A stretch of 64,000 nt of DNA from Clostridia bacterium (GTDB taxonomy: Bacteria > Bacillota > Clostridia > TANB77 > CAG-508). The stretch is taken from contig JAFRCC010000006.1 in the NCBI GenBank assembly GCA_017404545.1, positions 8 through 64,007 on the forward strand, read 5' to 3'. Of the stretch, positions 2,943 through 56,653 are shown piece by piece (positions within the stretch are counted from its first letter, which is position 1; each line of letters starts with the position of its first letter). The translations under genes and the position numbers were made by a program. A model generated the notes under the pieces. It did no database searches. It was not told where the DNA came from and saw nothing but the letters and a program-made list of their open reading frames with translations.

Positions 2943-3000
2943 TCAATTATTAATATGAAAAATCAAAGATTAAAAGAATTTCTTTTTAAATAACTTTTAG
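2943..3000. repeat. about 58-bp direct repeat, copy B, 180 bp upstream of the integrase gene (candidate att-type sequence)
   Basis: See copy A at 405-465. Confidence 0.6.
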
Positions 3001-3177
3001 TTATAAAAATAGAAAACTTTAAATAGTAACAAAAAGTAACTAATACATATTTTTTAAAATATCTTAAACTTTTGGTGATTCAATAATTTGAAAAATCGGA
3101 TTACTTACCAAATGCTCTCTCTCAAATTATAATATATTTCATTAATATATTATACTTATTGTCAATTAGGTGATAAT

Positions 3178-4290
3178 ATGGATAACGAGCTAGTAAGTGA
3201 AGTGAATATGGTAAAAAATCATTCCGAAGCCACTAAAATTGTTTATGAAAGAGCGGTTAAAAAATATACTGATTTTTGGTCAATGTCTTTGGAAGAACTG
3301 TTAGAAGAGGCGGAAAATGAAGAAGATAAAGGCATAAAATGGAAAAAAAGAAAATTAAAAAGGAGATTGATTCAATATCGACAACATTTACTTGAAAATT
3401 TCTCTTTAAATACAGCGCACATCTATTTCAATCCCATAACAGTTATTTACAGATATTATGAAATAGAAATAATCGATTTACCTAAAATTAACGAAAAAAG
3501 TTTAAAAAAACCAGAACCTATCCAATTCAAAGATTTACCTGATAAAGAAATCATAAGACAAGCTATAAATATTGCAACTCCTACAATGAAAGCAATAATA
3601 TATTTTATGGCGTCTAGCGGTTGTGCTAGAACTGAAACCTTGAATTTAACTATCGGAGATTATATTGGAGCCCTATCAGAATATACAAACAAAACTAACA
3701 TATACGACATAATAAATGAATTAAACGAAAATAATAATATTATTCCAACATTTAGTATTTTAAGACAAAAAACGGGAAAATATTACACTACCTATTGTAG
3801 TCCTGAAGCAGTAAAGGCTATAAATTTATATTTGCTCGATAGAACTGACTATTTAACAGATTATAAACCTTTATTCAGAATAAATTCAATTTATTTTAAT
3901 GCCAAATTTATAGAAATAAATAATAAACTAGGATTAGGAAAAGTAGGCTCTTATAATCGATTTAGAAGCCATATGTTACGTAAGTTTCACGCCTCCGCAC
4001 TATATAACGACGGTATGAGCTTAGATAAAGTCAATGACTTGCAGGGAAAAGCTAAAAACAAAACCGACCAAGCTTATTTTATGACTAATCCCGAAGATTT
4101 AAAACACGAATATATCAAACATCTTCCGGCTGTAACTATAAATCAAGATGTTGAAAAGCTATCTATCAAATCTCCGGAATTTATTCATATGGAAAATGAG
4201 AATAAAGAGTTAAAATCAGATTTAGACGAACTTAAAAGCAAAATTAAAAATATTGAAAATTTCGTTAAAAATTCCGGAGATGTCTTGTAG
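3178..4290 (+). CDS. int: tyrosine recombinase / phage integrase
   Basis: ARTETL region (first Arg). C-terminal HMLRKFHAS...LQGKA...AYF gives the H-x-x-R...H...Y catalytic pattern. Sits at the element boundary. Confidence 0.8.
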   Translation: MDNELVSEVNMVKNHSEATKIVYERAVKKYTDFWSMSLEELLEEAENEEDKGIKWKKRKLKRRLIQYRQHLLENFSLNTAHIYFNPITVIYRYYEIEIIDLPKINEKSLKKPEPIQFKDLPDKEIIRQAINIATPTMKAIIYFMASSGCARTETLNLTIGDYIGALSEYTNKTNIYDIINELNENNNIIPTFSILRQKTGKYYTTYCSPEAVKAINLYLLDRTDYLTDYKPLFRINSIYFNAKFIEINNKLGLGKVGSYNRFRSHMLRKFHASALYNDGMSLDKVNDLQGKAKNKTDQAYFMTNPEDLKHEYIKHLPAVTINQDVEKLSIKSPEFIHMENENKELKSDLDELKSKIKNIENFVKNSGDVL

Positions 4291-4438
4291 ACACAACTTG
4301 AGTTTTTATACATTTCCCTATTTTTTCTATTTTTTTATTTTAAATAACATTTAATAATACAATATATATTCATTAAACATAATTTATATTAGTAAAAACT
4401 TAAATATGTATTATTAACGAATATTAGGAGAAATAATT

Positions 4439-5728
4439 ATGAGTAATAAGAAATCACTAATGTTAATAATATTATCGATTTTTATGATTAGTGTTGTTAT
4501 AGGAGCGGTTTCTGCAAACTCTTCATTTGAAGAAAATTATTCTATAACTGAAACCGATAATACCGTTGCTCCATTGTCCGATATGAACTATTTGACTGAA
4601 TATAGTTCTTATTCAGACGAATCAGATTATAGTTCCGACAATGTTGAAACTACTGTTGATGATGGTACTTCAGACAGCAGTTCTGATGATGATAATGAGA
4701 ATATTGATGAAGAAACTCCTGAATATGACGGAGAATTCATTGTTGAAAATATAACTCAAAAATATGACGGATGGGGGTCTGACATATCCGTCTGGTTACA
4801 AGACAATGATGAAAATCCGCTTATTTTAGGAGATGGAGTTGTAACTCTTCATTGGAGTGATGGGACAATATCAAAACAATATGATAATGATTGGTATAAT
4901 CTCGAAATAATTGCTGATGAAATAAATTACGGCGTTGTTGATTATTCCGTATATGATTACTGGTTGTATGATGATGACGAATACGAGTGGGAAGGATATT
5001 ATTCAATTTTTAACAAGCCGGTAGGAACTTATACTGTAACGGCTGTTTGCAATGATGATGTTTACAATATTAAACCTGCAACATTTACAGTTAAAATTAA
5101 TAAAGGAACAGTTAAATTAACTCCCAAAGCTTATCATTGTGCTAAAGGAGATTATGCTACTTTAAAATGTAACGTCGTCGATTCTTACGGCCAATTTGTC
5201 GATGAAGGTACAGTAACTTTCAAAATTGATGGAAAAGAATACAAAGTAAAAGTATCCCGTGGAGTTGCTACTAAAAAAATAAAATTGTCAAAAGCTAAGA
5301 CTTATAAATATACAGCTACATTCAACGGAGACAATTATGTTTCAAAATCAGGGTCTAGTAGTATATACGTTTATAAAATCACTAAAAAAGCTAGAACTTT
5401 CAAAATTGGAAAATATAAAGCTGTAGTTCCATTAGCCAAATATAAAAAATTGATTAATGCTAAAAATACTAATAAACGTATTAGTTTTCATAACATCTAT
5501 ACTGGTAAAAAAATCACTCAAAAGGTTAAAGTAAACGGAAAATGGAAAACTATGAGAAACGTAAAAGTTTACTTTAATATTGCTTATGGTGGTAAAACTG
5601 GAGGGCAAGATTGCAATCCTAATAAATATTGCATTTATCTAGGAACTAAATATCAAAATCCCGGTTATGATGATTTTAAACCTTGGGTAGACGGGTATAA
5701 AACTAAAACATTACTTACTGATTTTTAA
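4439..5728 (+). CDS. secreted adhesin-like protein with Ig-like domain and Lys/Tyr-rich C-terminus
   Basis: N-terminal signal/TM helix, acidic D/S-rich region, Big-like segment (TVTAVCNDD...KVKVSRGVATKKIKL). Paralogous to 55374-56384. Confidence 0.6.
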   Translation: MSNKKSLMLIILSIFMISVVIGAVSANSSFEENYSITETDNTVAPLSDMNYLTEYSSYSDESDYSSDNVETTVDDGTSDSSSDDDNENIDEETPEYDGEFIVENITQKYDGWGSDISVWLQDNDENPLILGDGVVTLHWSDGTISKQYDNDWYNLEIIADEINYGVVDYSVYDYWLYDDDEYEWEGYYSIFNKPVGTYTVTAVCNDDVYNIKPATFTVKINKGTVKLTPKAYHCAKGDYATLKCNVVDSYGQFVDEGTVTFKIDGKEYKVKVSRGVATKKIKLSKAKTYKYTATFNGDNYVSKSGSSSIYVYKITKKARTFKIGKYKAVVPLAKYKKLINAKNTNKRISFHNIYTGKKITQKVKVNGKWKTMRNVKVYFNIAYGGKTGGQDCNPNKYCIYLGTKYQNPGYDDFKPWVDGYKTKTLLTDF

Positions 5729-6657: not shown

Positions 6658-6852
6658 ATGTACGAAATAAGAAAATGGGTAATTAAACCAGTCTTGAATG
6701 AGGTTATATATTCTAACCTCAACTTTCAAGCTCTGGAGGAAATACTCGGAGAACTCTCTGATAATATGAGTGAAAAAGAGTTCTTTGATTTATACGAAAT
6801 TGAAGAGCTAGAAACTGGATTAAAGAACAACGAAGTATTATGTTCAATTTAA
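6658..6852 (+). CDS. hypothetical early protein
   Basis: ORF preceded by the conserved GGAGTCGCAACCATG translation-initiation motif. Confidence 0.5.
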   Translation: MYEIRKWVIKPVLNEVIYSNLNFQALEEILGELSDNMSEKEFFDLYEIEELETGLKNNEVLCSI

Positions 6853-6904
6853 TCCTTTAGTTTGTCGAATTTTAAAACAAAAAATAACATTAGGAGTCGC
6901 AACC

Positions 6905-7015
6905 ATGTTAAAAGAAGAAGTTATTGACGGGAAACCTCACGTTCTTGTACCTAAAGAGGTATGGAATGAGATTTGGTCTATATTTGATAAAATTACTGAA
7001 ATGGGGGAGTAAATA
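6905..7015 (+). CDS. small hypothetical protein (36 aa)
   Basis: Third copy of GGAGTCGCAACCATG initiates this ORF (MLKEEVIDGKPHVLVPKEVWNEIWSIFDKITEMGE). Confidence 0.3.
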
Positions 7016-7033
7016 TGAGTATTTACTCTCCAT

Positions 7034-7441
7034 ATGAAGTATATCCTTCTTGGATTGATGAAGTTGAATTATCTTTGTGTGAGAATTGCACTTTTGACTG
7101 CGATATTCACCAATACTGCATTAACGAGGTGGATACTAATGACTAAATCAGTAAATCCTTTTATAGATAACACTGATGGCATTTTAACTCACAGCGGTGA
7201 GATTAAAGTTGCCAAATCAAATGTAGAACAAAAGATTTTAGATATAAGTGATGAAGGTAGCGTTTTAGTGAAAGGTAGAACTAAATCATATCACGCTTTA
7301 GTTCACGTGGAACTGTTACCTTTAATCCAATATGCAGAAAAAGGCGATACTGGCTTTATTAAATTCAGAAACGGTGAAGCCTTTATTGTCGGATTTAGAA
7401 AAAACCTAAAACGAGCTGATAAATATGAGAGATTTAATTAA
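7034..7441 (+). CDS. hypothetical protein
   Basis: ORF in the + strand early operon. Confidence 0.45.
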   Translation: MKYILLGLMKLNYLCVRIALLTAIFTNTALTRWILMTKSVNPFIDNTDGILTHSGEIKVAKSNVEQKILDISDEGSVLVKGRTKSYHALVHVELLPLIQYAEKGDTGFIKFRNGEAFIVGFRKNLKRADKYERFN

Positions 7442-7649
7442 GAATTTGCAAGCTAATTGTCCGGAAAATCATTTCATACAATTAGAAACCGTAAAAGACG
7501 AAACCAAATTTAAAATCCGTAAAAATGATAAACTCGGATTTAAAGGGAAACTAATTTGCATTCACTCTAACGGAGTGGTATCTTGCGTTATTAACCAAGA
7601 TTATATAGTCGCTATTTGTTATTGTAAGGAGTTGCCTAAAAATGAGTAA
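7425..7649 (+). CDS. hypothetical protein
   Basis: ATG embedded in the GAGCTGATAAATATG motif. Confidence 0.5.
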   Translation: MRDLIKNLQANCPENHFIQLETVKDETKFKIRKNDKLGFKGKLICIHSNGVVSCVINQDYIVAICYCKELPKNE

Positions 7650-7779
7650 ACCTGCTAGATTATACCCGAAACCAGAACCGATTGTAATAAACCCTAAAAT
7701 AATTTGGATAGGAAGCTTTATTTTTGCCTTAGTGATGGGTTGGATTGGAATTTCAACTTTATTTTACGGGGTGTTATAA
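7642..7779 (+). CDS. small membrane peptide (45 aa)
   Basis: Strong RBS AAGGAG. Hydrophobic peptide (IWIGSFIFALVMGWIGISTLFYGVL). Its stop overlaps the next start as TAATG. Confidence 0.45.
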   Translation: MSKPARLYPKPEPIVINPKIIWIGSFIFALVMGWIGISTLFYGVL

Positions 7780-8189
7780 TGGGTTTAGATATGTATTTAT
7801 ACGGCGCCACAATTACCTTCGAAGGTGAATCATCTAAAATGAAAATTCAACTTGAAGAGGTCGCTTATTGGAGAAAGCAAAACGCAATCCACAACTGGTT
7901 TGTTAATACCGTTCAAGAAGGCGTAGACAATTGCGCTTTATACGGCGTAAGTGAACGTCATCTCAAAAAGCTCCTAGTCGAATGTAAGAAAGTTCTTGAA
8001 AATCCGACTCCGGAAAATGCTATGAAAATTTTACCAACTCTTGGCGGATTCTTTTTTGGTGGAACTGACTTAACTAATGAATATGAGTTAGAATACTATT
8101 TAGGTGGTTTAAAATACACCGTTGAGCGTATACGTGAATTATTGAAAGAAGATGAATTTGAATACTATTATTATAGTTCAAGTTGGTGA
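7779..8189 (+). CDS. hypothetical protein (start taken at the internal ATG of ORF 7704-8189)
   Basis: ORF. Translational coupling to the upstream peptide suggests 7779 as the start. Confidence 0.45.
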   Translation: MGLDMYLYGATITFEGESSKMKIQLEEVAYWRKQNAIHNWFVNTVQEGVDNCALYGVSERHLKKLLVECKKVLENPTPENAMKILPTLGGFFFGGTDLTNEYELEYYLGGLKYTVERIRELLKEDEFEYYYYSSSW

Positions 8190-8193
8190 TTAG

Positions 8194-8454
8194 ATGGAAA
8201 GTAATGTGATTTTAGAAAATTTTGATAAATTAAACGATGATAACGCAATGTTTGTTGAATTTAAAAACGGAGGTTCATTATTGGTCGATAATACTGATAT
8301 AATCCATGCGACTGGCGATTTAATTGAGATTAAAGCAACTGCTGGAACCTACATAACCAAAGTAGATAATGTAATTGGTTTAAAAATCCTTAATCGTGTA
8401 GATATTGTTAAAAAAGCCCTCTTAGGAGAATTAGTAAGTGAAATAGGTGATTAA
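8194..8454 (+). CDS. hypothetical protein
   Basis: ORF with RBS GGTGAT upstream. Confidence 0.45.
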   Translation: MESNVILENFDKLNDDNAMFVEFKNGGSLLVDNTDIIHATGDLIEIKATAGTYITKVDNVIGLKILNRVDIVKKALLGELVSEIGD

Positions 8455-8456
8455 AT

Positions 8457-9017
8457 ATGGTTAAAGCTGAATTAATGGAAAACACTCCAGTAACTCATGA
8501 AACTGGATTAGTGAATGTAGATAACGTTCCTGATGTAGATACTGCATTAGAACAATGGAACGCTTATCAAGCACTTTGTAAAGGTCTTTTAAATGAAACC
8601 GATTATCAAGACATCGTAGTTAAAGAAAAAGACGCTGACGGAAATTACGTCAAAGTAACTAGGAAATTCAAAAAGAAATCCGCTTGGCAAAAATTGTCTA
8701 GAGCTTTTAATGTTGATACTCACATCGTAGACCGTGAACTTGAAAGAACCAAAATGGGTAGAGTCAGAGAAGCTTATTATTGTGTTCGCGCAACTCTCCC
8801 CAACGGTAGAAGTGTAGAATCAGACGCTTTATGCTCTAGAAGTGAAAGAGGCAAAGACAAAGTCTCCGACCACACTATTATGAGTACTGCTAAAACCCGT
8901 GCTACTAATCGTGCTATTGCTGAATTAATCGGAGCGGGCGAAGTTTCTGCTGAAGAAATGGGAGCTGAAAAAAGACTCGTTGAAAGTCAATCTAAATTTC
9001 TAAAAGAGGGTGAATAA
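8457..9017 (+). CDS. putative single-strand annealing protein (Erf/Rad52-like)
   Basis: C-terminal STAKTRATNRAIAELIGAG resembles the Rad52/Erf hallmark (A.T.A.KRA...G.G). Lies next to the replication genes. Confidence 0.4.
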   Translation: MVKAELMENTPVTHETGLVNVDNVPDVDTALEQWNAYQALCKGLLNETDYQDIVVKEKDADGNYVKVTRKFKKKSAWQKLSRAFNVDTHIVDRELERTKMGRVREAYYCVRATLPNGRSVESDALCSRSERGKDKVSDHTIMSTAKTRATNRAIAELIGAGEVSAEEMGAEKRLVESQSKFLKEGE

Positions 9018-9056
9018 ATATATATTCCCTTCTAATTTTTTTATGAGCTGATAAAT

Positions 9057-9434
9057 ATGATTGAGGAAATTACCAAAGCTGAAGAAAATACTACACCCAA
9101 AATAACCTATCCAGCGTTATTTTACATGGGTTTGAAAGAATTAATACAGACAAAATCTGTTGCATTATTCGAACTAAGGAAACTTGAAAATGATTTGAAC
9201 GACGCTGAAAGAAAGCTATCTCACAAAGAATCTAAGCTCATCTTAACAACTGATTTCAAAGAACTAGGATTAACCAATGAAAAAATGAGGAAATCCTACA
9301 TCTATGACGAGTTATATGATGATAAATGTGATATTGCTGTTATGAAAGGCGATGTTGAAGAAAAAAGAGACACTATTGAAATAATCAACCACTTAATTAG
9401 ACTAAGTGAAATTAAATTGCAAGGAGCGTTATAA
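9057..9434 (+). CDS. hypothetical protein
   Basis: ATG embedded in GAGCTGATAAATATG. Confidence 0.5.
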   Translation: MIEEITKAEENTTPKITYPALFYMGLKELIQTKSVALFELRKLENDLNDAERKLSHKESKLILTTDFKELGLTNEKMRKSYIYDELYDDKCDIAVMKGDVEEKRDTIEIINHLIRLSEIKLQGAL

Positions 9435-9435
9435 A

Positions 9436-9936
9436 ATGAGTTTTAATGACAAACAAAGTATTTTTACTAGCACTGAATTAGATTATGAAGAAATTGTAGA
9501 CATTCCGGACGGATACGAAAAAGCTGAATTGAAAGATTTTGAAGATGGAACTTTAATCACCGGCAGACCTGAAATGTCCTCTGTAACTTCCTACACCTTC
9601 GATGATGATGGTGAGGAAAAAACTGTTAATAGGTTCAAATTATTCATTTTCAAAGATGCAGAACAATTATACGTCGAAATTAATGTAAATCTTAAAAATG
9701 ATGGTGATATTCACAAGAATATACGTAAAGGAAGTGTTTTATTTGACTTCTTAACTAGTATTCTTGAGTTAGAAAATGCCGGGTCAGTCGGAAGATCAAA
9801 TATCATCAGAAACGCCAACTTAGCTGAATATCGTGAGTTCGTAAACAGATTAAGTGAAATGACTATCGAAGTTAAAGAAAAAACTGGAACTTATGTATTC
9901 TACAGTTTTGTAATTAGAGATGTACAAATTGAATAA
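9436..9936 (+). CDS. hypothetical protein (start at ATG 9436 behind AAGGAG, not 9406)
   Basis: ORF. Confidence 0.45.
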   Translation: MSFNDKQSIFTSTELDYEEIVDIPDGYEKAELKDFEDGTLITGRPEMSSVTSYTFDDDGEEKTVNRFKLFIFKDAEQLYVEINVNLKNDGDIHKNIRKGSVLFDFLTSILELENAGSVGRSNIIRNANLAEYREFVNRLSEMTIEVKEKTGTYVFYSFVIRDVQIE

Positions 9937-12038: not shown

Positions 12039-12506
12039 GTGGTAAGTATTACTAAAAAGAATTTTACTATAACTGTCGATGAAGATTTGGTAAAAAAGGC
12101 TAAAAAGCAAATACCTAATATAAGTAAATTTGTTGAAGATTGCTTAAAATGTTTCTTAGGTATGGGAAACAAGCAAGTTTCAACAAGTAGACAATACGAA
12201 CTGATACAAACTATAAGTAAATGTCAATTAGAACTGCATTTAATGAATGAGAAAAGTAACATTGAAAAATCTAGAAAAGAAGCTGAAACTGAAGAAATTA
12301 ATCTTGTTTGGAGGAAATTATACGCCGAGTATAGAGATACAAGAAAAATTGACTCTGCTAAGCTAAAAGAGGCTGAAAAAATATTAGGAGTTTCTAGTGA
12401 GGAGCTAACTGATATTATTGAAGTCTTATTTGTCTATCACAACGAAACTGAAATAGACATTACAGATTGGTTCGAGGTTTACAATGAATACGGGTACGGT
12501 GATTGA
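12039..12506 (+). CDS. ribbon-helix-helix (CopG-like) DNA-binding protein with a C-terminal acidic domain; GTG start
   Basis: N-terminus KKNFTITVDEDLVKKAKK...ISKFVEDCLKCFL fits the RHH beta-alpha-alpha pattern. RBS CGAGGTG. Confidence 0.5.
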   Translation: MVSITKKNFTITVDEDLVKKAKKQIPNISKFVEDCLKCFLGMGNKQVSTSRQYELIQTISKCQLELHLMNEKSNIEKSRKEAETEEINLVWRKLYAEYRDTRKIDSAKLKEAEKILGVSSEELTDIIEVLFVYHNETEIDITDWFEVYNEYGYGD

Positions 12507-21426: not shown

Positions 21427-21481
21427 AATATCTAATAAGAATACCTTCACCAAATCGAGATGATTTTTATTATAGTTTTTT

Positions 21482-22521: not shown

Positions 22522-22536
22522 AGGAGGCTTCAAATT

Positions 22537-31756: not shown

Positions 31757-31786
31757 ACTTACAAATTATTTGAAGAGCTGATAAAT

Positions 31787-33682: not shown

Positions 33683-33696
33683 TTTTAGGTGATAAT

Positions 33697-40098: not shown

Positions 40099-40113
40099 TG
40101 GAGGTTAATATCA

Positions 40114-44031: not shown

Positions 44032-44039
44032 GAGGTGAA

Positions 44040-46530: not shown

Positions 46531-46538
46531 ATAGAAAA

Positions 46539-48122: not shown

Positions 48123-48126
48123 ATAA

Positions 48127-50813: not shown

Positions 50814-51800
50814 ATGATAAAGAAAAGCGAAATTAAGCTAATTGCTGAAAAAATCAAAGAATATGTAGAAAAAAATAAGGAAATACCCAATTCAATAGAA
50901 GTAAATAAGAAAAAATACTCAAAAACCGAGTGTTTATACATTTTAGGATATGCTATTGATCATCTAAATGAAAATTTTGATTTTAAAAGCGGTAAAGTAG
51001 CAAGTAATCCTGTAATTACTGTCATTAATGAAGATATTTATGAGTCTGATTATAAAGACCAATCTAAAAGATTATGCCAATATTTAAATCAAAACGGTAA
51101 AGCTCCGAATTACATTAAATCAGTTAAATCCTCAACTAAGATTTCGCCGGATTTGGAGTTGTACGCTTTTGCTAAAATAATCGATTATTATTACAAAAAT
51201 AAAAGATTGCCTAATTATTGCAATTATAATTCTAGCGTATTGGCTAGCGTTAAGTCCAGTAAAAACAATTGCAGTAATCCTTATAAATCATCTCCTCACC
51301 CTACTAAAAAGGGTTGCGATGCTATGGGTCAAAATACTGGTTATTTTTGTGCAATTTGTGCACTGCAACATTCTTTATTCAAATTCGGTATCTACGTTTC
51401 TCAAAGCCAATTAGCAAAATGGGCGGGGACAACTAGCTCCGGAACTTCTCATCAAGGAATCCGTACTGCCGTTGCAATGGTAAACAGTAAATATCACGTT
51501 AATATTTCCGTAGATGAGAAAAACTTCAGTGATTTAGGTTTAGAAGGGTTGGCAAAACTTATCTGTAAAAGTAACGTTGATGTGATAATTCATTTGTTAT
51601 ATCGTCTTAAATACGGTCATTATGAGTCAATTAACGAAATTGACGTGAAAAATAAGATGTTTAAGATTTTAAACTCACTTGGAAACAAATGCTCTGGTGG
51701 TTGCTATTGCGGTTACGTTGAGGATAGATCATTAGCTGTAGAAAAATCATATATCGGTGGAATTAGTCAGAAATCCATCATTATTTTAACTAAAAATTAG
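50814..51800 (+). CDS. pei: pseudomurein endoisopeptidase (Pei-like lysin) with two N-terminal pseudomurein-binding repeats
   Basis: Two PMBR-like repeats (IKLIAEKIKEYVEKNKEIPNSIEVNKKKYSKTECLYILGYAI; LCQYLNQNGKAPNYIKS...LELYAFAKIIDYYYKNKRLPNYCNY). C-terminal Cys/His peptidase-like domain (GYFCAICALQHS...HLLYRLKYGHYESIN). Start in GAGCTGATAAATATG. Confidence 0.75.
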   Translation: MIKKSEIKLIAEKIKEYVEKNKEIPNSIEVNKKKYSKTECLYILGYAIDHLNENFDFKSGKVASNPVITVINEDIYESDYKDQSKRLCQYLNQNGKAPNYIKSVKSSTKISPDLELYAFAKIIDYYYKNKRLPNYCNYNSSVLASVKSSKNNCSNPYKSSPHPTKKGCDAMGQNTGYFCAICALQHSLFKFGIYVSQSQLAKWAGTTSSGTSHQGIRTAVAMVNSKYHVNISVDEKNFSDLGLEGLAKLICKSNVDVIIHLLYRLKYGHYESINEIDVKNKMFKILNSLGNKCSGGCYCGYVEDRSLAVEKSYIGGISQKSIIILTKN

Positions 51801-51808: not shown

Positions 51809-51997
51809 ATGAACGTTATTGTTAAAAAAATACATGAAATCCATTTAGATTATCAACAAAGGCAAGTTTCTAAGTTGTATAAGTCAGAAGGATTAACAAA
51901 AAGAGTCTTAAATAAGCAAAGAAAGATTAATGAAAAAAGAAATGAGCTAGATTTACCTGATAGGTATGAGAGGCAATATAAAAGGTTTGTACAATGA
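51809..51997 (+). CDS. hypothetical basic protein
   Basis: ORF with RBS AGGTGAAAATATG. Confidence 0.35.
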   Translation: MNVIVKKIHEIHLDYQQRQVSKLYKSEGLTKRVLNKQRKINEKRNELDLPDRYERQYKRFVQ

Positions 51998-52278
51998 ATA
52001 TTTTAGTTTTGATTAAAGAATTAGATTCTACGCCTTTAGATAGGGAAATAAGAAACGGAGGAGGTCATGGTGATATAATTAGTTTCTATAATGAAACTGG
52101 TAATGACTATGATTTAATCATAGAGGGTGTTGAATATTCAAGAGTAGTTCAGGCATGTGTTATTTTTAAAGACCGTTCTTATTATCTCTACATTCAACAC
52201 GGTGAAAATCCTAACTTAATTAAGTTAGATGTAGATAGTATAGAAGAAATTAATTGTATTCCGTCATTAGTTGAATAA
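51994..52278 (+). CDS. hypothetical protein
   Basis: ORF. Confidence 0.35.
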   Translation: MNILVLIKELDSTPLDREIRNGGGHGDIISFYNETGNDYDLIIEGVEYSRVVQACVIFKDRSYYLYIQHGENPNLIKLDVDSIEEINCIPSLVE

Positions 52279-52369
52279 CTCCCTCCCGTATTTTTGAATA
52301 AAAATATTTAAAATGTATAAAAACAAATTTATACCCATATTGCTATCAAAATATGCGCGAGGGTCAATT

Positions 52370-53242
52370 ATGAAAAACACTAAAAAGCTGATATTGCTAT
52401 TAGTATTGTCTATTTTTCTTGTGGGTATGTTGATGGGGTCAGCAACAGCAACTCATACAGTTAAAGTAGGTAAATATACTGGAACAATATCGGATAATGA
52501 TTATAAAAAATTACAAAATGCTAAAAGTAAAAATAAGGATTGTTCCGTTCTTAATGTTAAATCTAATAATAAAGGATATAGTATGGCAATTTACTATAAC
52601 ACCTTTTCGGGTTATGAGCCAATGTCCGGAATTACATTTGAAAAAGGATTTTTGGGTAGTGTATGGAAAAACGGTGAAGAATCTCCGATAATTGCTTATA
52701 AAAAAGCCACTATATCATCTAAAACCACAACAAATACTAAAAAAAATACTGTTTACACAAAACCACATACTTACAATCTGGGAGGATATAAAGTAACAGT
52801 TTCAGCTAAACAATATACTCAATTGAAGAAACATAAGAATACAAATACTTTATATATTGCTTATAAGAATATTGGCAATAAAAATGTTAAAGTTCCTAAG
52901 TATAAGACTGTGAAAAAGAAAGTATGGGAGACTAAATTAGTATTGGATGAAAAATTAGTTTATAGTTCCGATTGGTCTGATTCTACTTGGTATGAATATC
53001 ATGCTGATAGATACAGTAAAGCCGGTTGGAAATATTATGGAAGTAAAACTGTAGAATCCAATAATGGCCATGTTATTAAATATTATCAGAAATATAAAAA
53101 ACAAGTAACTAAAAACGTTAAAGTTAAAAATGGTTATAAAACGGTTAAAGTTCCAATTAAAGCTGAAATTTGGTCTAATGGAATGTATAAATTATATGAT
53201 AAGAACGGATATTTCTATAAATCCGGTAAAGTAAATATTTAA
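52370..53242 (+). CDS. secreted Lys/Tyr-rich protein (start at ATG 52370; the ORF track extends it to 52313)
   Basis: Signal/TM helix MKNTKKLILLLVLSIFLVGMLMGSATA. C-terminus K/Y-rich like 4439-5728 and 55374-56384. Confidence 0.5.
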   Translation: MKNTKKLILLLVLSIFLVGMLMGSATATHTVKVGKYTGTISDNDYKKLQNAKSKNKDCSVLNVKSNNKGYSMAIYYNTFSGYEPMSGITFEKGFLGSVWKNGEESPIIAYKKATISSKTTTNTKKNTVYTKPHTYNLGGYKVTVSAKQYTQLKKHKNTNTLYIAYKNIGNKNVKVPKYKTVKKKVWETKLVLDEKLVYSSDWSDSTWYEYHADRYSKAGWKYYGSKTVESNNGHVIKYYQKYKKQVTKNVKVKNGYKTVKVPIKAEIWSNGMYKLYDKNGYFYKSGKVNI

Positions 53243-53278
53243 ACCAATAGCTAAGCTATTGGTCTTTTTTTGTTTTTT
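53243..53278 (+). terminator. perfect hairpin ACCAATAGCT-A-AGCTATTGGT followed by TCTTTTTTTGTTTTTTG
   Basis: Read directly; begins at the stop codon of the upstream gene. Confidence 0.7.
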
Positions 53279-53432
53279 GTCTAATTTTTTCAAGTGTATG
53301 AAATAGTTTATTTTAACTTTTTTTCTATTGATTATTTTCATTAATTAATTTAACTAATTGTTCTCTGATTAAATACTGCTTAACTAACTCACTTATTTTT
53401 TTTATTAAATTTAAGCATTTACAACGTCGTAA

Positions 53433-53468
53433 TACATATATGTACTAGAGTTCTATCTATAACTATCG
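53433..53468 (+). promoter_or_regulatory. promoter-like bipartite element TACATATATGTA-N12-CTATAACTATCG, followed by a small hairpin CGGA-TTACG-TCCG
   Basis: Identical architecture at 14342-14377 and 54212-54247. Confidence 0.5.
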
Positions 53469-53543
53469 GATTACGTCCGGTGAGAACTTGAATTTATTTA
53501 TAACTTCAAGTGAACTGTTAAAAATGATGGAGAATTGATTTAA

Positions 53544-53708
53544 ATGATTGACGTATATGTAAAAAACTATAACGAAACTTTTGCTATAATCATCGACGGA
53601 GTAATTGTTGATTTTACTACTGTTTATGATGAAGTTGAAAATTTAATCTTAGAAGTTTGTGATGAATTAGGAATTGATACTTGGGATATTAACGTTCAAG
53701 AAAATTAA
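53544..53708 (+). CDS. small hypothetical protein (54 aa)
   Basis: ORF MIDVYVKNYNETFAIIIDGVIVDF... downstream of the promoter-like element. Confidence 0.3.
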   Translation: MIDVYVKNYNETFAIIIDGVIVDFTTVYDEVENLILEVCDELGIDTWDINVQEN

Positions 53709-53726
53709 GAATAACGAGCTGATAAT

Positions 53727-54116
53727 ATGAACAGAGCTGAATACTTAACTGAATTAATGAAAAGAGATGTGGAATCTATTGTAACTGCTGAAGAAGATGT
53801 TAAAGATATGGAGTTAAAATTAATCGTAGAGCTTAAAAAAGCTGAAGAAAAATGTGATGCTTATGAGGAAATGTACGAAGATGACGAAGGACTTATAATG
53901 TCTGCTTATACTGAATACGAAAGAGTTAGAAGTCCTATAACTCAATTAGAGTCTTTAGTTCAAGACTTCAAAATTAGCTTAATCGACCACTACGAACAAT
54001 TGTTAATAGAAAAAAGAGCCTATAATGAGGAAATCCGCAAAGCTTTGGCTACTGCTAAATATAATGTCGTTAAAATGGACGAAACTGTAGAAATTATTAA
54101 AGGTGTTTTAATCTAA
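53727..54116 (+). CDS. hypothetical acidic protein
   Basis: ATG in the 14-nt variant motif GAGCTGATAATATG. Confidence 0.45.
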   Translation: MNRAEYLTELMKRDVESIVTAEEDVKDMELKLIVELKKAEEKCDAYEEMYEDDEGLIMSAYTEYERVRSPITQLESLVQDFKISLIDHYEQLLIEKRAYNEEIRKALATAKYNVVKMDETVEIIKGVLI

Positions 54117-54211
54117 ACACCTATTATTTTTTTTCAATAAAATCCGTTGAATTATTGTAAAACCTCACCAAATATTATGATTTTAAAATTCAATCATTTA
54201 CGTTGGAGTAA

Positions 54212-54247
54212 TACATATATGTAGCGCTGTCCTAACTATAACTATCG
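54212..54247 (+). promoter_or_regulatory. promoter-like bipartite element TACATATATGTA-N12-CTATAACTATCG, followed by a hairpin CGAGA-N9-TCTCG
   Basis: Third copy of the conserved element. Confidence 0.5.
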
Positions 54248-54289
54248 AGAGTTAAATTATCTCGTGAAATAATTAAGGAGCTGATAAAT

Positions 54290-54604
54290 ATGAAAAACTT
54301 TGTTAAAATTATGGAAAACGTTGAAAACCTTGTAAAAGGCTGTGAAGGATATGTTGAATACGGATTTATTCCTGACGAAAATGTCGTTAGTGTAAGAGTA
54401 TTTGAATATGATGATTACGCTGAATATTGCGATGATTTAGAATACTACAACTTTACTCTCGTATTTTCCGAGTTATTCGAACAAATCAAAACCCAATGCA
54501 ATGACCTTGCAGAAAACATAAAATCCTACGTACCAACTGATGCGGATAAAATGTGCTACGGATATTTCAACTACCGTGAAATTCTCATAACTCCTCGTGA
54601 CTAG
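54290..54604 (+). CDS. hypothetical protein
   Basis: ATG in AGGAGCTGATAAATATG. Confidence 0.45.
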   Translation: MKNFVKIMENVENLVKGCEGYVEYGFIPDENVVSVRVFEYDDYAEYCDDLEYYNFTLVFSELFEQIKTQCNDLAENIKSYVPTDADKMCYGYFNYREILITPRD

Positions 54605-54613
54605 GTGATCTAA

Positions 54614-54850
54614 ATGTATGGATTTAACTTTATTATCAGAAATGATATGAAAGTATCTTTTTTCATTGATAAAAATGACGAATTTTACCATTGGCAATAT
54701 ATTAATGGATTTAATTATGATTTGGACGACTTTGAAAGGGATTTGATTAATAAATTTGGTAAAGATTTCTTAATCCGGACGGTTAAAGAGATGGCGGTTT
54801 ATGAAACTAAGAGATTAAACGGTCATATTGAATTGGTGAGGTTTGAATAA
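54614..54850 (+). CDS. hypothetical protein
   Basis: ORF with RBS AGGTGAT. Confidence 0.4.
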   Translation: MYGFNFIIRNDMKVSFFIDKNDEFYHWQYINGFNYDLDDFERDLINKFGKDFLIRTVKEMAVYETKRLNGHIELVRFE

Positions 54851-55280
54851 GATGTCCGATTATACTACTGTGAGGATTAAAAAATCCTCACTCGAAAAAA
54901 TCAATAAAATGAAAGGGGAACACGGGTCAGTTGCCGATGTTGTTGAAAAACTTCTAAGTTCTGTAGGAGGTTGTAGTATTGACGATATTCTTGAGATTAA
55001 CAGAGATAGCGTTGCTATAACTTTAGAATACTTATTTTTTGATGGAAAAAGTTTTCATCTAGCCAATGAGTATTATATTACTTTTCAAGAACTAAGATTA
55101 AGCAAAGTTGGTGATACTTTCACTGCAAATCAAAATCCGGCTGATGATAGTTATTCCCTCGATACCGCTGAAGTTTTATTTGTTGATGAACGTTCCGTCT
55201 TAGTTAGAGTAACTGAAACTTTGAAAAGTGAAAATCAGGAAACTTCCGTTGTTCATATGGAGCATGTGGATTTGTTTTAA
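54843..55280 (+). CDS. hypothetical protein
   Basis: ORF. Confidence 0.4.
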   Translation: MNKMSDYTTVRIKKSSLEKINKMKGEHGSVADVVEKLLSSVGGCSIDDILEINRDSVAITLEYLFFDGKSFHLANEYYITFQELRLSKVGDTFTANQNPADDSYSLDTAEVLFVDERSVLVRVTETLKSENQETSVVHMEHVDLF

Positions 55281-55373
55281 TTTTATCTATTTTTTATTCG
55301 AAGTCAAGAAATAATCTTGACATTTTTCTATTTTTAATAAATTATTTTAATAACAAAATATATACCTTTATTC

Positions 55374-56384
55374 ATGAAATATAATAGATTGGTTGTGTTG
55401 GGACTTGTTTTAATTGTTCTATTTTTAAGTATTGGAGTAACAACTGCAAATGAAAATACTACTTTAGAAGGTGTAGAATCTAATGTAGAGGATACTTTAA
55501 TGAGTTATGATGAAAATTTAGGGGAATATGGGGATTATGGGGAAAACTATAATGCTAGAATCATAGCTAACAACGTAACAGTAGAATATGATGATGAATA
55601 TGAACTATCAATCTATATTGTTGATAATAACAATAATCCAATAGAAATGGCGGAACCTTATTTTGAAGATTATTTAAATTCATGGTACGATTCTAACGGA
55701 TATTATTATTTTTATCCAAGTAATTATGATGTAGGAACTCATAATGTTACATTTACTCTTGACGACGGTCTTTATAAAGCAGAACCCGTTTCAATTAATA
55801 TGAAAATTGTTAAATCTGTATTTTATGGCGAAATTACTTGTAAATCTTATTGGGGAACTACTAAAAGCACTTTAACAATGAAAGCAACCGTTTATAATCC
55901 TTATGGAAGTTTTTATGAAGAGGGTTATGTTACTTTTAAAGTTAATGGAAAATCTTATAAAGTTAAAACTAAAGGTGGCGTAGCAACTAAAACAATAAAA
56001 ATTAAAAAATCCGGAACTTATACCTATACTGCAAAATTTATTAATAACAATTACAAATCATCAGGAGTAACTGGTAAAGCCAAATTATATGTTAAAAAAT
56101 ATAAAAAATATTATACATTTACAGCAAAAGATTATGATAAACATAAAACTACTGGTAAATTGATATATAAATTACCTTATAAGTATTATCTGAAATTATT
56201 AACTGCAAAAAGTAAAGGAAAAACTTGTTATTTGAATTTCAAAAGTAAAGTCAAAGTTTATGGAAATAAATGGTATAAAACCAGATGTGGATTTGATTTA
56301 AATAAAAAAGGTAAATTAACATTTACTTATGAGGTAGATACTTATTCCCATCCTGTTTTTGCATATAAAGTATATAATTTGTAG
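55374..56384 (+). CDS. secreted adhesin-like protein with Ig-like domain and Lys/Tyr-rich C-terminus (paralog of 4439-5728)
   Basis: Signal/TM helix. Big-like segment GEITCKSYWGTTKSTLTMKATVYNPYGSFYEEGYVTFKVNGKSYKVKTKGGVATKTIKIKK aligns with the 4439-5728 protein. Confidence 0.55.
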   Translation: MKYNRLVVLGLVLIVLFLSIGVTTANENTTLEGVESNVEDTLMSYDENLGEYGDYGENYNARIIANNVTVEYDDEYELSIYIVDNNNNPIEMAEPYFEDYLNSWYDSNGYYYFYPSNYDVGTHNVTFTLDDGLYKAEPVSINMKIVKSVFYGEITCKSYWGTTKSTLTMKATVYNPYGSFYEEGYVTFKVNGKSYKVKTKGGVATKTIKIKKSGTYTYTAKFINNNYKSSGVTGKAKLYVKKYKKYYTFTAKDYDKHKTTGKLIYKLPYKYYLKLLTAKSKGKTCYLNFKSKVKVYGNKWYKTRCGFDLNKKGKLTFTYEVDTYSHPVFAYKVYNL

Positions 56385-56653
56385 ATTTAGATAAATTCAA
56401 ATGAAAATACTTATATTAGTCCATTGAAATAATTTATTTTAAGTTCATTGATTATTCTACTCATTGGCTTGATTATTTTAATAACTGGAACTTAATTAAC
56501 TGTTGTTTAACTCAATCAATCTTTTGTTTATTCAATATTGAAATTGAATATCTCCGAGAGCCAATCCAAATTTTGAGTTTGAAGAGATTCTGAAGAGGTT
56601 CCGAAGATGTACTGAAATTCAATTTATATAGGGAATTTTATAAACTAATATTC

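Follow-up and report, generated by a model that had tools for sequence, protein, structure and literature searches.

An integrated, apparently complete 54-kb virus genome encoding a predicted contractile (myovirus-type) tail in a rumen Methanobrevibacter chromosome

The window (the whole 64,000-nt stretch analysed, positions 8 to 64,007 of contig JAFRCC010000006.1) holds an inserted element bounded by two copies of a short repeat (Table 1). Three metagenome contigs (L002, L005 and L006) carry the flanks of the window at 99.9% identity or better and lack the insert. Because these insert-free contigs share both flanks, the provirus ends can be placed at the attL and attR cores, and the element is therefore 54,145 bp long. 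When L002 is aligned to the window, the left and right matches overlap by the 13 bp of the att core, and those of L005 and L006 overlap there too; the 10-bp core CTAATACATA occurs only twice in the whole window, and the integration core is 10–13 bp. Insertion was as a single piece, upstream of hsp20 in the intergenic spacer that separates it from a small membrane-protein gene, so that the Hsp20 gene (57221-57823) directly follows attR, just as in the empty site. A reading of the sequence alone had given the extent as 3000-56400 (~53 kb), which is near but inexact; the last ~800 bp that it omitted contain only small ORFs and attR, and 56385-57181 is provirus DNA that is mostly non-coding. The element has a G+C content of 0.313 and is ~88% coding, with none of its structural ORFs interrupted.

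Table 1. Features of the provirus, in window coordinates
Feature	Position	Strand	Evidence or remark
attL core TAACTAATACATA	3037-3049	.	Left junction; empty-site contig alignment
Tyrosine integrase, 370 aa	3178-4290	+	Pfam Phage_integrase E 2.6e-9, above cut-off
Secreted adhesin-like protein 1 (signal peptide, Ig-like domain)	4439-5728	+	Big_3_5, Big_1 just below cut-off
Early block, small genes of unknown function	6658-9936	+	Includes 8457-9017
MCM replicative helicase, 659 aa	9957-11936	+	Pfam MCM E 7e-71, MCM_lid 3e-21, MCM_OB 1e-14
Small protein, N-terminal CcdA-type (ribbon-helix-helix) motif	12039-12506	+	Pfam CcdA E 8e-5
XPF/ERCC4-type nuclease, C-terminal helix-hairpin-helix pair	13639-14307	+	Pfam ERCC4 E 8e-14, HHH_5 2.5e-8
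BcgI-like type IIB/IIG restriction-modification pair	17216-20197	-	PADLOC
Specificity subunit, 363 aa	17216-18307	-	PADLOC Specificity_II PDLC03591 E 1e-85
Nuclease-methyltransferase, 629 aa	18308-20197	-	PADLOC REase_MTase_IIG PDLC03602 E 4e-165
Nucleotide/DNA-metabolism block	20629-24395	+	Kinase, small membrane proteins, ParB_N, radical SAM
dTMP-kinase-like protein	20629-21426	+	Thymidylate_kin E 1e-10
ParB_N protein	22537-23190	+	ParB_N 2e-8
Radical SAM protein	23163-24395	+	Radical_SAM 1e-11
Terminase small subunit (TerS)	24419-25048	+	phrog_6299 TerS E 6e-7
Terminase large subunit (TerL)	25219-26598	+	Terminase_6N 3.5e-13, Terminase_3 1.7e-10
Head module	28418-33184	+	Portal, head morphogenesis, protease/scaffold, capsid
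Probable portal	28418-29755	+	Phage_portal E 1e-6, below Pfam cut-off
Head-morphogenesis protein	29740-30579	+	Head module; PHROGs
XkdF-type protease/scaffold	30761-31756	+	Peptidase_S78_2 (XkdF) 2.7e-17
Major capsid protein, C-terminal Ig-like domain	31787-33184	+	Matches XkdG / major capsid proteins
Three head-tail connector / tail-completion candidates	33272-34681	+	Placed between capsid and sheath
Contractile tail sheath, 344 aa (predicted fold)	34856-35890	+	AlphaFold2 + Foldseek
Tail tube, 131 aa	35891-36286	+	Tube/Hcp fold; directly after sheath gene
Tail assembly chaperone candidate	36397-36810	+	Position only
Tape measure protein, 753 aa	36986-39247	+	Six PHROGs tape-measure families, phrog_1272 among them; best E 3.6e-17
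Baseplate block	39244-44513	+	Five genes
PG_binding_1 protein	39244-40098	+	PG_binding_1 1.9e-12
782-aa protein, C-terminal transglutaminase-like Cys-peptidase domain	40114-42462	+	Transglut_core 1.2e-11
gp25-like sheath initiator	42456-42881	+	phrog_975 7.8e-11
Baseplate_J	42865-44031	+	Pfam Baseplate_J 3.4e-26; phrog_6 2e-50
Small baseplate protein	44040-44513	+	Baseplate block
Three tail-fibre / receptor-binding proteins (608, 533, 890 aa)	44704-50799	+	
PeiR-like pseudomurein lysin: pseudomurein-binding repeats (PMBR), C39-type cysteine peptidase	50814-51800	+	PMBR 8e-15
Right-arm block, small accessory genes	51809-56384	+	Two secreted proteins, next two lines
Secreted protein	52313-53242	+	N-terminal hydrophobic segment
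Adhesin-like protein 2	55374-56384	+	Big_1 / Big_3_5; N-terminal hydrophobic segment
attR core TATCTAATACATA	57182-57194	.	Right junction; empty-site contig alignment

Gene calls came from profile scans with Pfam, PHROGs, PADLOC and NCBIfam, and folds from AlphaFold2 models then searched against PDB with Foldseek. The scans bore out the module order and most of the gene names of the sequence-only reading, among them the integrase, MCM helicase, XPF/ERCC4 nuclease, dNMP-kinase-like (here dTMP-kinase-like), ParB-like and radical SAM proteins, tape measure, gp25-like and J-like proteins and fibres. The integrase also matches an XerA-like NCBIfam model (E 5e-15, below cut-off) and contains ARTE (from residue 150), HMLRK (265) and AYF (299), which we interpret as its probable catalytic motifs. 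For the helicase (NCBIfam MCM 2e-129, below cut-off) we likewise read GDPGIGKS, DEFDK and SRFD as the likely Walker A, Walker B and arginine finger. The early block has no Pfam match. Its ORF 8457-9017 had been called Erf-like, and 12585-13118 AP2-like; neither name finds support in Pfam (even at E ≤ 5), PHROGs or NCBIfam, and the sole PHROGs match of the former is phrog_22961 (unknown function). The CcdA-type match (23.3 bits; cut-off 22.4) covers residues 6-37 only and makes its protein a candidate regulator. Adhesin-like protein 1 has a hydrophobic N-terminal segment and is a paralogue of adhesin-like protein 2 (29% identity, E 2e-25).

What had been taken for a type I M+S island is rather a complete BcgI-like nuclease-methylase with its specificity subunit. 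The PDLC03602 alignment spans protein residues 6-627 and model positions 2-631 of 637, and Pfam N6_Mtase begins only at residue 305. The G+C content of this island is 0.266, compared with 0.313 for the element, and a second dip lies around 26-28 kb. PHROGs matches in the nucleotide/DNA-metabolism block are phrog_2107 (thymidylate kinase) and phrog_13321; the nearest NCBIfam family to the radical SAM protein is PA0069/Rv2578c, below cut-off.

The best GenBank matches of TerL are in Methanobacterium virus PhiF3 (39%) and psiM100/psiM2 (35%). The capsid protein resembles XkdG and major capsid proteins of Clostridium and Bacillus phages, its closest GenBank matches including XkdG and the defective Bacillus phage PBP180; residues 395-462 match PEGA/CarboxypepD_reg. 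The head module also matches phrog_2468 (head morphogenesis, 5e-9) and phrog_1623 (9.5e-26). Profile matches are significant for terminase, capsid and tape measure and weak for the portal (E 1e-6), which has no PHROGs match and no PDB sequence match. Synteny across related loci places the terminase, portal, capsid and tape measure genes in a single element. The three connector candidates, one with a weak match to phrog_5 (tail completion; 33697-34224, E 0.002), keep their order in loci L017-L019.

The tape measure is also matched by Pfam TMP_2 (E 6e-4), and the baseplate block by phrog_7378 (2.4e-8). The 782-aa protein is placed in the baseplate by position; a candidate Cys, His and Asp can be read in its transglutaminase-like domain (CADTARL...GGHFW...ASDQT). 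Among the fibres, the 533-aa protein carries Big_3_5 / CarboxypepD_reg. The 890-aa protein, last of the three, combines a TIM barrel with a heptad coiled coil and a C-terminal domain (PF23845 5.6e-70, PF23844 1.6e-14). It is 24-29% identical to large E. coli myophage proteins, some of which carry a lateral tail fibre annotation; in PDB it matches Gp64 (9lc0_M, 1e-28), and the coiled coil resembles P22 gp26. A 21-bp tandem repeat (x7) lies at 50283-50436.

The "Pei lysin" of the sequence-only reading is a pseudomurein lysin of PeiR-like (C39) type. Peptidase_C39 matches at E 3e-5 (24.3 bits; cut-off 22), and residues 155-326 match PDB 22oc_A, 'P210 WT', at E 2e-33; PeiR-like endolysins have been placed in the Peptidase_C39 family (PMC11375127). 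The PeiW/PeiP (C71) type was rejected on the C39 match and on the lack of any Pfam Peptidase_C71 match even at E ≤ 5. No holin was identified beside the lysin, and the right-arm block has no family matches apart from adhesin-like protein 2. The proteins encoded in the flanks either have identical counterparts in Methanobrevibacter or share 90% clusters with proteins of that genus, M. gottschalkii among the species matched. Together with the PMBR-bearing lysin and the presence or absence of the insertion among contigs, they support a pseudomurein-walled methanogen as the host, and with it the earlier description of an integrated, modular and (apparently) complete tailed provirus.

The GenBank phage records include no close relative. 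Three Methanobrevibacter MAGs preserve the order TerL, portal, capsid, sheath, tube, tape measure, baseplate. On 46 IMG/VR contigs, structural genes reappear no more than 10 kb from related sheath genes; for these contigs we fetched 10 kb on each side of the sheath gene and so saw only the structural half. The 53.2-kb circular viral genome vir080 has homologues, in the same order, of the integrase (43% identity), an early gene (8457-9017, 39%), the ERCC4-type nuclease (41%), the tail transglutaminase-like domain and the lysin (45%).

We read the window as containing one temperate Caudoviricetes genome, self-integrated by its tyrosine recombinase and with everything expected of an autonomous virus, and put the probability of this at about 0.85. 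Should the element instead be a defective or domesticated PBSX-like one (a tailocin or host-DNA packager), it would be assembled and lytic without being infectious or self-propagating. This is improbable, though it is the alternative that we take most seriously, since its genes for capsid, protease and tail belong to the PBSX (Xkd) type, with the capsid matches named above, and the searches turned up neither an attP junction nor a free contig of this viral genome: every integrase-bearing contig is the integrated form, and a 40-nt attP probe had no match in JGI metagenomes or IMG/VR, neither of which appears to contain this virus. However, the element retains its own integrase, intact att sites, an MCM replication module and TerS/TerL. 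It is present or absent among near-identical host genomes, within the sample set and even within one sample (the source of both L002 and the attL-spanning contig L015), which fits recent mobility. Relatives are scattered over Methanobrevibacter species and IMG/VR contigs with modules swapped, as for circulating viruses.

The tail had been called siphovirus-like, with a tape measure and no recognised sheath, so that gp25-like and J-like baseplate genes beside it seemed unusual. A siphovirus-like provirus that had acquired these Mu/P2-type genes would match the characterised Methanobrevibacter virus MSTV1, a siphovirus (PMC11375127), and the sheath is near-invisible to sequence searches (Pfam Phage_sheath_1 E 0.009, below cut-off; phrog_279 E 0.0014; no match of its family profile to PDB sequences). 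The predicted fold contradicts that account, which we now consider very unlikely. The model of the 344-aa protein (pLDDT 82.9, pTM 0.82) has contractile-tail or injection-system entries, mostly named sheaths, as all 50 of its 50 listed Foldseek matches in PDB, including phiCD508 (best, E 4.8e-12), DSY3957, Lin1278, diffocin, AFP and R-pyocin, and PF04984 is present in many of its homologues. Directly after it comes the tube protein (pLDDT 76.8), whose top Foldseek matches are weak (E 3e-3 to 0.1, TM 0.5-0.56) and lie in tail-tube, Hcp and contractile-tail assemblies: tail entries of phage 812 and phiCD508, the Pam3 sheath-tube, Mu, diffocin and Flavobacterium Hcp1. Chaperone and tape-measure genes follow, in the standard myovirus order that relatives also keep. 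On its modelled fold, then, the ORF is a tail sheath, and gp25-like and J-like proteins are therefore to be expected, in a myovirus-type, PBSX-like tail; the oddity is gone. The contractile tail set is complete, with sheath, tube, chaperone, tape measure, wall-binding protein, 782-aa protein, gp25-like protein, Baseplate_J and three fibres, and the gene order of the morphogenetic block is, we take it, that of Bacillus PBSX (Xkd).

That at least two unrelated mobile elements lie side by side (e.g. a separate prophage remnant next to an integrative element that carries the MCM and restriction-modification genes) is the least credible alternative: the two G+C dips, a packaging gene like those of psiM-type viruses with a capsid and baseplate like those of Firmicutes myophages, and the structural-half view of the IMG/VR loci speak for it, but the whole 54.1 kb lies within one att repeat pair and is absent as a unit from the empty site, there is a single integrase, nearly all genes are co-oriented, vir080 joins early, tail and lysis genes, and it is usual for one phage genome to be mosaic and to carry inserted accessory genes.

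For the temperate virus, we infer a life cycle in which, upon induction, the element would excise, replicate with MCM and package its DNA via the terminase into particles. Their tails may be ~110 nm long, given a 753-aa tape measure and the rule of thumb of ~0.15 nm per residue. In infection, the fibres would attach to the cell surface and the sheath contract from the gp25/J baseplate, driving the tube through pseudomurein, perhaps aided by the PG_binding_1 protein and by the transglutaminase-like cysteine peptidase carried on the tail; release would depend on the PMBR-C39 lysin. A lysogenic host may be protected, and its surface altered, by accessory genes, namely the restriction-modification pair, if active, and those for the three secreted adhesin-like proteins. 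The element is one well-delimited addition to a kind already catalogued in hundreds.

The ends of the element were set by comparison with empty insertion sites and not by repeat search; an exact-repeat search between the ends (k = 12) did not distinguish the att core among many A/T-rich 13-mers. Exact lookup of the SIS-domain protein of the right flank in public assemblies gave 23 contigs. Among them, the provirus adjoins hsp20 in L001, L003, L004 and L008, and in L002, L005 and L006 hsp20 runs straight into two small membrane-protein genes and the Fic gene, with empty-site flanks at least 99.9% identical to the window. By BLASTN, L002 5114-11932 corresponds to window 64000-57182 and L002 11920-14968 to window 3049-1, both blocks being 99.87-99.96% identical to the window and overlapping by 13 bp. 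The overlap reads TAACTAATACATA in the empty site and at attL, and TATCTAATACATA at attR; the two att copies agree at 12 of 13 positions, 10 bp of them an exact run, and this 10-bp core, CTAATACATA, has no further copy in the window. Alignment of both ends to the empty site thus defines an inserted unit of 54,145 bp with 31.3% G+C. The sequence-only reading had placed the element at 3000-56400; the element is real, and its right end lies about 800 bp further out. The claim that it is an integrated temperate Caudoviricetes provirus is borne out by an integrase by one end (the gene begins 129 bp inside attL, and its assignment also stands), by the att repeats and by the empty attB in related genomes.

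Both flanks are ordinary archaeal chromosome, with a Fic protein and two small membrane proteins on the left and an Hsp20, a SIS-domain protein, an adenine deaminase, a TIGR00300-family protein and a permease on the right. The window is rich in A+T, its G+C content being about 24-37% per 2 kb, and the plus strand holds nearly all ORFs between about 3.2 kb and 56.4 kb. No tRNA gene and no Rfam family was found in the window, so integration was not into a tRNA gene. The left flank also holds pairs of intergenic repeats of about 160 bp, at 339-496 and 2875-3034 (76%) and at 650-810 and 1847-2007 (86%); one copy stops 2 bp short of the att core, and its partner has no core after it. The Fic/MarR-type protein of this flank matches the SoFic anti-phage defence model PDLC03963; its gene, 1.2 kb away from the integration site, is also found in the empty-site allele.

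One sample, ERZ28653819, yielded both the empty allele L002 and L015, a short contig that spans attL, so lysogenic and non-lysogenic genomes coexist, which fits recent mobility. Examples of samples with both alleles are SAMN15829906 and run SRR12529052. The attP junction is expected as …ATATTTTGAAATA-TAWCTAATACATA-TTTTTTAAAATATC…. No attP was found among 15 integrase-bearing contigs, and the attP 40-mer was absent from JGI metagenomes and IMG/VR, collections that seem not to hold this virus.

The proteins of the window are identical to GenBank MBQ3407933-MBQ3408004 (locus tags IJH12_*), labelled 'MAG: Clostridia bacterium'. The flanking TIGR00300 protein is, however, identical to one from a Methanobrevibacter MAG, with M. 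gottschalkii in its 90%-identity cluster, and the neighbours at the host site include eIF-5A and arginine-decarboxylase genes. Because of these flanking proteins and neighbours, this looks like a Methanobrevibacter contig binned into the wrong genome. The provirus is unrecognised in public annotation: its sheath and lysin are each a 'hypothetical protein' and its capsid a 'carboxypeptidase regulatory-like domain-containing protein'.

Features of the provirus and its flank in window coordinates
Feature	Position	Strand	Match or remark
Fic/MarR-type protein, host flank	844-1863		PDLC03963 E 5e-57
attL	3037-3049		
Tyrosine integrase	3178-4290	+	Phage_integrase E 2.6e-9, above cut-off
Secreted Ig-domain adhesin-like protein	4439-5728	+	paralogue of 55374-56384, opposite end of element
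Small early genes	6658-9936	+	no function assignable
ORF once taken as Erf-like	8457-9017		phrog_22961 (function unknown)
MCM helicase	9957-11936	+	MCM_OB, MCM, MCM_lid all above cut-off; OB, P-loop and lid domains
Protein with CcdA-type ribbon-helix-helix N-terminus	12039-12506	+	
ORF once taken as AP2-like	12585-13118		weak phrog_99, E 0.0015
Small membrane protein	13305-13502		
ERCC4 nuclease with helix-hairpin-helix pair	13639-14307	+	
Restriction-modification pair	17216-20197	-	629-aa and 363-aa proteins
dTMP-kinase-like protein	20629-21426	+	zinc-ribbon-like C-terminal tail
Small membrane protein	21684-21953		
Small membrane protein	22174-22521		
ParB_N protein	22537-23190	+	
Radical SAM protein	23163-24395	+	nearest PA0069/Rv2578c group, below cut-off
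TerS candidate	24419-25048	+	
TerL	25219-26598	+	Terminase_6N 3.5e-13
Probable portal	28418-29755	+	Phage_portal E 1e-6, below Pfam cut-off; position conserved
Major capsid protein	31787-33184	+	phrog_1623 E 9.5e-26; XkdG-type tblastn matches
Predicted tail sheath, 344 aa	34856-35890		
Predicted tail tube, 131 aa	35891-36286		
Chaperone-position ORF	36397-36810		
Open -1 frame	36768-36983		71 codons
Protein ending in PG_binding_1, 284 aa	39244-40098		
Protein ending in transglutaminase-like domain, 782 aa	40114-42462		
Tandem repeat in 890-aa fibre gene	50283-50436		21-bp unit, about seven times
Lysin	50814 (start)		
ORF	54290 (start)		
Adhesin-like paralogue	55374-56384		
attR	57182-57194		

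In the left arm, the MCM helicase claimed from the sequence is upheld by its three Pfam domains and by motif stretches in place; GDPGIGKS, DEFDK and SRFD can be read as Walker A, Walker B and arginine finger. Two other early assignments fell. The supposed Erf-like annealase has no Erf match in Pfam (E <= 5), PHROGs or NCBIfam and resembles, besides its PHROG, only an ORF of the human-gut virus genome Caudoviricetes sp. vir080. The supposed AP2-like protein has no AP2 match in Pfam even at E <= 5, and its sole lead is the phrog_99 match, to an HNH endonuclease family, over residues 114-162. A 15-mer, GAGCTGATAAATATG, occurs three times, at 6177, 50802 and 54278. The last two copies stop exactly at the start codons of the lysin and of the ORF at 54290, and the first falls between the gene of the first adhesin-like protein and the early block; the 15-mer may represent a common ribosome-binding or start context.

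The restriction-modification pair had been labelled as a type I methylase and specificity subunit, a label we replace. The 629-aa protein matches the type IIG nuclease-methyltransferase model PDLC03602 end to end (E 4e-165, residues 6-627 to positions 2-631 of 637), whereas its best type I methylase model reaches 3e-42 over the C-terminal half only. The 363-aa protein, which Methylase_S matches in two stretches, fits Specificity_II PDLC03591 (341 positions) at E 1e-85 against 0.002 for Specificity_I, and no HsdR is present. From the end-to-end type IIG match and the type II specificity match, the pair is predicted to be a complete BcgI-like type IIB system and not an orphan methylase. The likeness to BcgI lies in the two-gene arrangement of a fused nuclease-methyltransferase and a separate two-domain specificity subunit, and the protein sizes presumably correspond to BcgI subunits A and B. 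Unlike BcgI, the pair sits in an archaeal provirus, on the strand opposite to the viral genes. The G+C content of the island is low (0.266), as expected of an inserted accessory gene block.

The proposed terminase and capsid are well founded in their profile matches. The portal stands on its conserved position, with a profile match that falls below cut-off, and it has no match in PHROGs and no sequence match in PDB. Two accessory genes, one for a SHOCT/zinc-ribbon protein and one a minus-strand ORF, are inserted after TerL. A head-morphogenesis protein directly follows the portal, the virion module also includes an XkdF-type protease with an acidic, scaffold-like tail, and three connector candidates lie between the capsid and tail genes. 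Among GenBank phages the capsid matched only XkdG-type proteins, from phages of Clostridium and Bacillus and from a few of Pseudomonas. The C-terminal part of the capsid protein (residues ~350-465) consists of a Ser/Thr/Glu-rich linker followed by a PEGA/CarboxypepD_reg Ig-like domain. In vir080, unlike the provirus, the homologous domain is a separate 90-aa ORF straight after the capsid gene, and in the capsid's 90%-identity cluster most of the members listed measure 365-368 aa, short enough for the domain to be missing. This looks like a decoration domain found either fused to the capsid protein or on its own.

The tail genes run in the order 344-aa ORF, 131-aa ORF, 137-aa ORF, tape measure (753 aa), 284-aa protein ending in PG_binding_1, 782-aa protein ending in a transglutaminase-like domain, gp25-like protein, Baseplate_J, small baseplate protein, three fibres and lysin. 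By sequence the 344-aa ORF gives faint sheath matches (Pfam E 0.009, phrog_279 E 0.0014); 381 homologues are detectable, many with a precomputed PF04984. Its AlphaFold2 model, built on 32 homologues (pLDDT 82.9, pTM 0.82), matched contractile-tail and injection-system entries of the PDB throughout the 50 Foldseek matches listed, mostly sheaths, at probability 1.00. The best is phiCD508 (E 4.8e-12), and DSY3957, Lin1278, phage 812, diffocin, AFP, R-pyocin and the Streptomyces injection system are among the others. On this model, we identify the ORF as the contractile tail sheath. The 131-aa ORF after it is modelled as a beta-sandwich (pLDDT 76.8). Its best fold matches belong to assemblies of the tail-tube, Hcp and contractile-tail kinds (phage 812, phiCD508, Pam3, Mu, diffocin and Hcp1). 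These are modest (E 3e-3 upward, TM 0.5-0.56), and with such weak E values we take it as a probable Hcp/gp19-fold tail tube.

The two baseplate assignments made from the sequence hold. The gp25-like sheath initiator matches phrog_975 at 7.8e-11 (Pfam Sheath_initiator and GPW_gp25 at E 0.0014-0.0015 are below cut-off), and Baseplate_J matches Pfam at 3.4e-26 and phrog_6 at 2e-50. With sheath, tube, gp25-like protein and Baseplate_J, the element is predicted from its genes to encode a full contractile tail. The earlier view of a siphovirus-type tail, one without a sheath, fails on the sheath gene. Given sheath, tube, gp25-like and J proteins in a PBSX-like order, the pairing of a tape measure with gp25-like and J proteins that had been called unusual is the normal one for a contractile tail.

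A -1 frame overlaps the end of the chaperone-position ORF, and GGGTTTT lies at 36802 within the overlap region, in a heptamer register that is not canonical; this could be the programmed frameshift usual in tail assembly chaperones. The PG_binding_1 domain, of bacterial type, and the transglutaminase-like peptidase are borne by baseplate-region proteins of a virus whose host wall is pseudomurein, not murein. In the peptidase domain candidate Cys, His and Asp residues are legible in CADTARL...GGHFW...ASDQT, and tail proteins of this transglutaminase-like kind are also encoded by vir080 and at 28 IMG/VR loci.

The 890-aa protein matches Pfam families named 'non-contractile tail sheath' (E 5.6e-70), and one labelled phage homologue bears that very name. 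Most of its phage homologues bear no annotation; the functional labels that exist are mainly lateral tail fibre or tail fibre protein, in large E. coli myophages, and the gene lies among the fibre genes after the baseplate. We therefore rejected the Pfam name and read the protein as a probable receptor-binding fibre with a TIM-barrel domain. It also has a heptad coiled coil resembling the P22 gp26 needle and encoded by the 21-bp tandem repeat (heptads …TTLEGQVSTLDGE…), whose copy number could vary between strains.

The 328-aa lysin begins with two to three pseudomurein-binding repeats (PMBR E 8e-15). The catalytic half scores 24.3 bits with Peptidase_C39, whose cut-off is 22, and also matches PDB 22oc_A 'P210 WT' (E 2e-33), and Peptidase_C71 gives no Pfam match even at E <= 5. 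The lysin is 45% identical to that of vir080. PeiR-like endolysins of animal-gut Methanobrevibacter viruses are C39 and PeiW-like ones C71 (PMC11375127), and with this class assignment the C39 match makes the lysin a predicted PeiR-like enzyme. What had been called a Pei lysin thus shares the binding repeats of PeiW/PeiP but not their C71 catalytic domain. No holin candidate adjoins the lysin gene, and the sole small membrane proteins in the element are the three in the table.

A scan of 185,579 species-representative genomes gave three related loci, all in Methanobrevibacter MAGs from goat or roe-deer gut. All three keep the order portal, head-morphogenesis protein, XkdF-type protease, capsid, connectors, sheath, tube, chaperone, tape measure, PG-binding protein, transglutaminase protein, gp25-like protein, J and small baseplate protein; in two of them a homologue of TerL lies upstream of this block. 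In IMG/VR, 46 contigs carry a related sheath (23-72% identity), and the flanking structural genes recur in 16-37 of them. By megablast the structural half had no match in 50,697 GenBank phage records, and by tblastn the sheath and portal had none among GenBank phages. TerL varies independently of its neighbours: its identity is 33% against 61% for the portal in MAG locus L018, and 74% against 90% in L019. Its best GenBank phage matches, over 82-86% of the protein, are PhiF3 (39%), psiM100/psiM2 (35%) and vir323 (34%). A TerL out of step with its neighbours and closest to psiM-type siphoviruses points to exchange of the terminase module among Methanobacteriales viruses, and with a psiM-type TerL beside a PBSX-type head and tail the genome is a mosaic.

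The closest known layout is that of Bacillus subtilis PBSX (Xkd) and of PBSX-like myophages infecting Clostridium/Clostridioides and Bacillus, such as phiCD505, CDKM9, phiCD508, CPAS-15 and PBP180. The provirus shares what we take to be the Xkd morphogenetic order: XkdF protease/scaffold, XkdG capsid, connectors, short sheath, tube and chaperone. This order presumably continues alike through tape measure, XkdP-position wall-binding protein, hub-position protein, gp25-like protein, Baseplate_J, small baseplate protein and fibres. The capsid is 25-27% identical to XkdG / major capsid proteins, the J protein has its best matches (25%) in C. difficile myophages, and phiCD508 is the best structural match of the sheath. 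The differences are an archaeal host with pseudomurein, a wall-binding protein that bears PG_binding_1 where PBSX XkdP carries LysM, a transglutaminase-like peptidase on the hub-position protein, a PMBR-C39 isopeptidase as lysin, archaeal MCM replication and a psiM-type terminase. PBSX is defective, whereas the provirus, with integrase and att sites, looks autonomous.

The only GenBank virus sharing several genes with the provirus is vir080 (NC_133305 / BK063677; 53.2 kb, human-gut Methanobacteriales). It is similar in size and in order, from integrase, early genes, helicase, terminase and head to tail, baseplate J, fibres and lysin. Identities reach 43% in the integrase, 39% in an early ORF, 41% in ERCC4, 45% in the lysin catalytic domain, 30% in the tail transglutaminase-like domain and 44% in the PEGA/CarboxypepD_reg domain. 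It differs in having a DEAD/ResIII-type helicase in place of MCM, and BLAST-level similarity is absent in TerL, portal, capsid body, sheath, tube, tape measure and J. Profiles of the provirus sheath and tube did not match its 381-aa and 134-aa ORFs. It also has a transglutaminase-like tail protein, and because it has its own sheath-initiator-like protein and Baseplate_J (phrog_6) it probably has a contractile tail too.

The psiM2, psiM100 and PhiF3 siphoviruses (of Methanothermobacter and Methanobacterium) and vir323 resemble the provirus in TerL (34-39%); psiM-group viruses likewise have pseudomurein-walled hosts, which they lyse by pseudomurein endoisopeptidases (PMC10791045). Their genomes are, however, only 26-34 kb, the psiM lysins PeiW and PeiP are Peptidase_C71 (PMC11375127) and not C39-like, and the group is absent from the GenBank matches of the provirus portal, capsid, sheath, J protein and lysin. 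The phi-mru prophage of M. ruminantium M1 is likewise an integrated element, whose modules serve integration, replication, packaging, capsid formation, lysis and lysogenic conversion (PMC2812497); its published description (62 kb and 39% G+C, against 54 kb and 31%) sets it apart. MSTV1 of M. smithii, the one well-characterised Methanobrevibacter virus, is also an integrated provirus of this genus but a siphovirus of 38.8 kb whose long tail is non-contractile (PMC11375127), unlike that of the sheath-encoding provirus.

From its genes the virus would work as follows. The integrase would recombine at the CTAATACATA core, MCM would drive replication with help from the XPF-type nuclease, and TerS and TerL would fill an XkdG-type head. 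The tape measure would set a tail of about 110 nm, by the rule of thumb of 0.15 nm per residue. At entry the fibres would bind the cell surface and the sheath would contract from the gp25/J baseplate, while the PG_binding_1 protein and the transglutaminase-like cysteine peptidase may open the pseudomurein locally. For release the PMBR-C39 lysin would open the wall. A lysogenic cell would use the BcgI-like system to restrict DNA entering from outside, and its surface would be altered by three secreted adhesin-like proteins.

To our knowledge, only siphoviruses have been observed so far in pseudomurein-walled methanogens. The archaeal myovirus families in a 2024 review (PMC10791045) are, as far as we know, all haloarchaeal, which would make the provirus a candidate for the first case in which a contractile-tailed virus is demonstrated to infect a methanogen. 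Together with the three MAG loci and the 46 IMG/VR contigs it may represent a family-level lineage that lacks an isolate or a close GenBank genome and in which a PBSX-type machine has been refitted for an archaeal wall, a tentative reading to which we give a probability of about 30%. Equally tentative parts of it are that the PG_binding_1 protein takes the place of the phage LysM protein, and that the tail-borne transglutaminase-like cysteine peptidase is a candidate pseudomurein-cutting entry enzyme. This lineage may already have been classified by Medvedeva et al. 2023 (Nat Microbiol, doi 10.1038/s41564-023-01485-w).

For ruminant gut archaea, one catalogue counts 327 viral populations (PMC11542040); for the human gut, another counts 1,279 viral species (PMC9800368). 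The provirus leaves the overall picture unchanged: Methanobrevibacter proviruses are on record in the hundreds, and its layout is a standard myovirus one. It is also an example of a predicted complete restriction system in an archaeal provirus, and its occupied and empty alleles in the same samples offer a natural pair of lysogen and non-lysogen in which to seek induction. We regard it as useful, being a clean candidate for what would be the first contractile-tailed virus observed in a methanogen, yet unsurprising. Methanobrevibacter is the main rumen methane producer, and its viruses and lysins are considered as control tools; this cleanly delimited, apparently intact provirus offers a predicted contractile tail, a candidate wall-cutting enzyme and a PeiR-type lysin as proteins that can be tested against pseudomurein.
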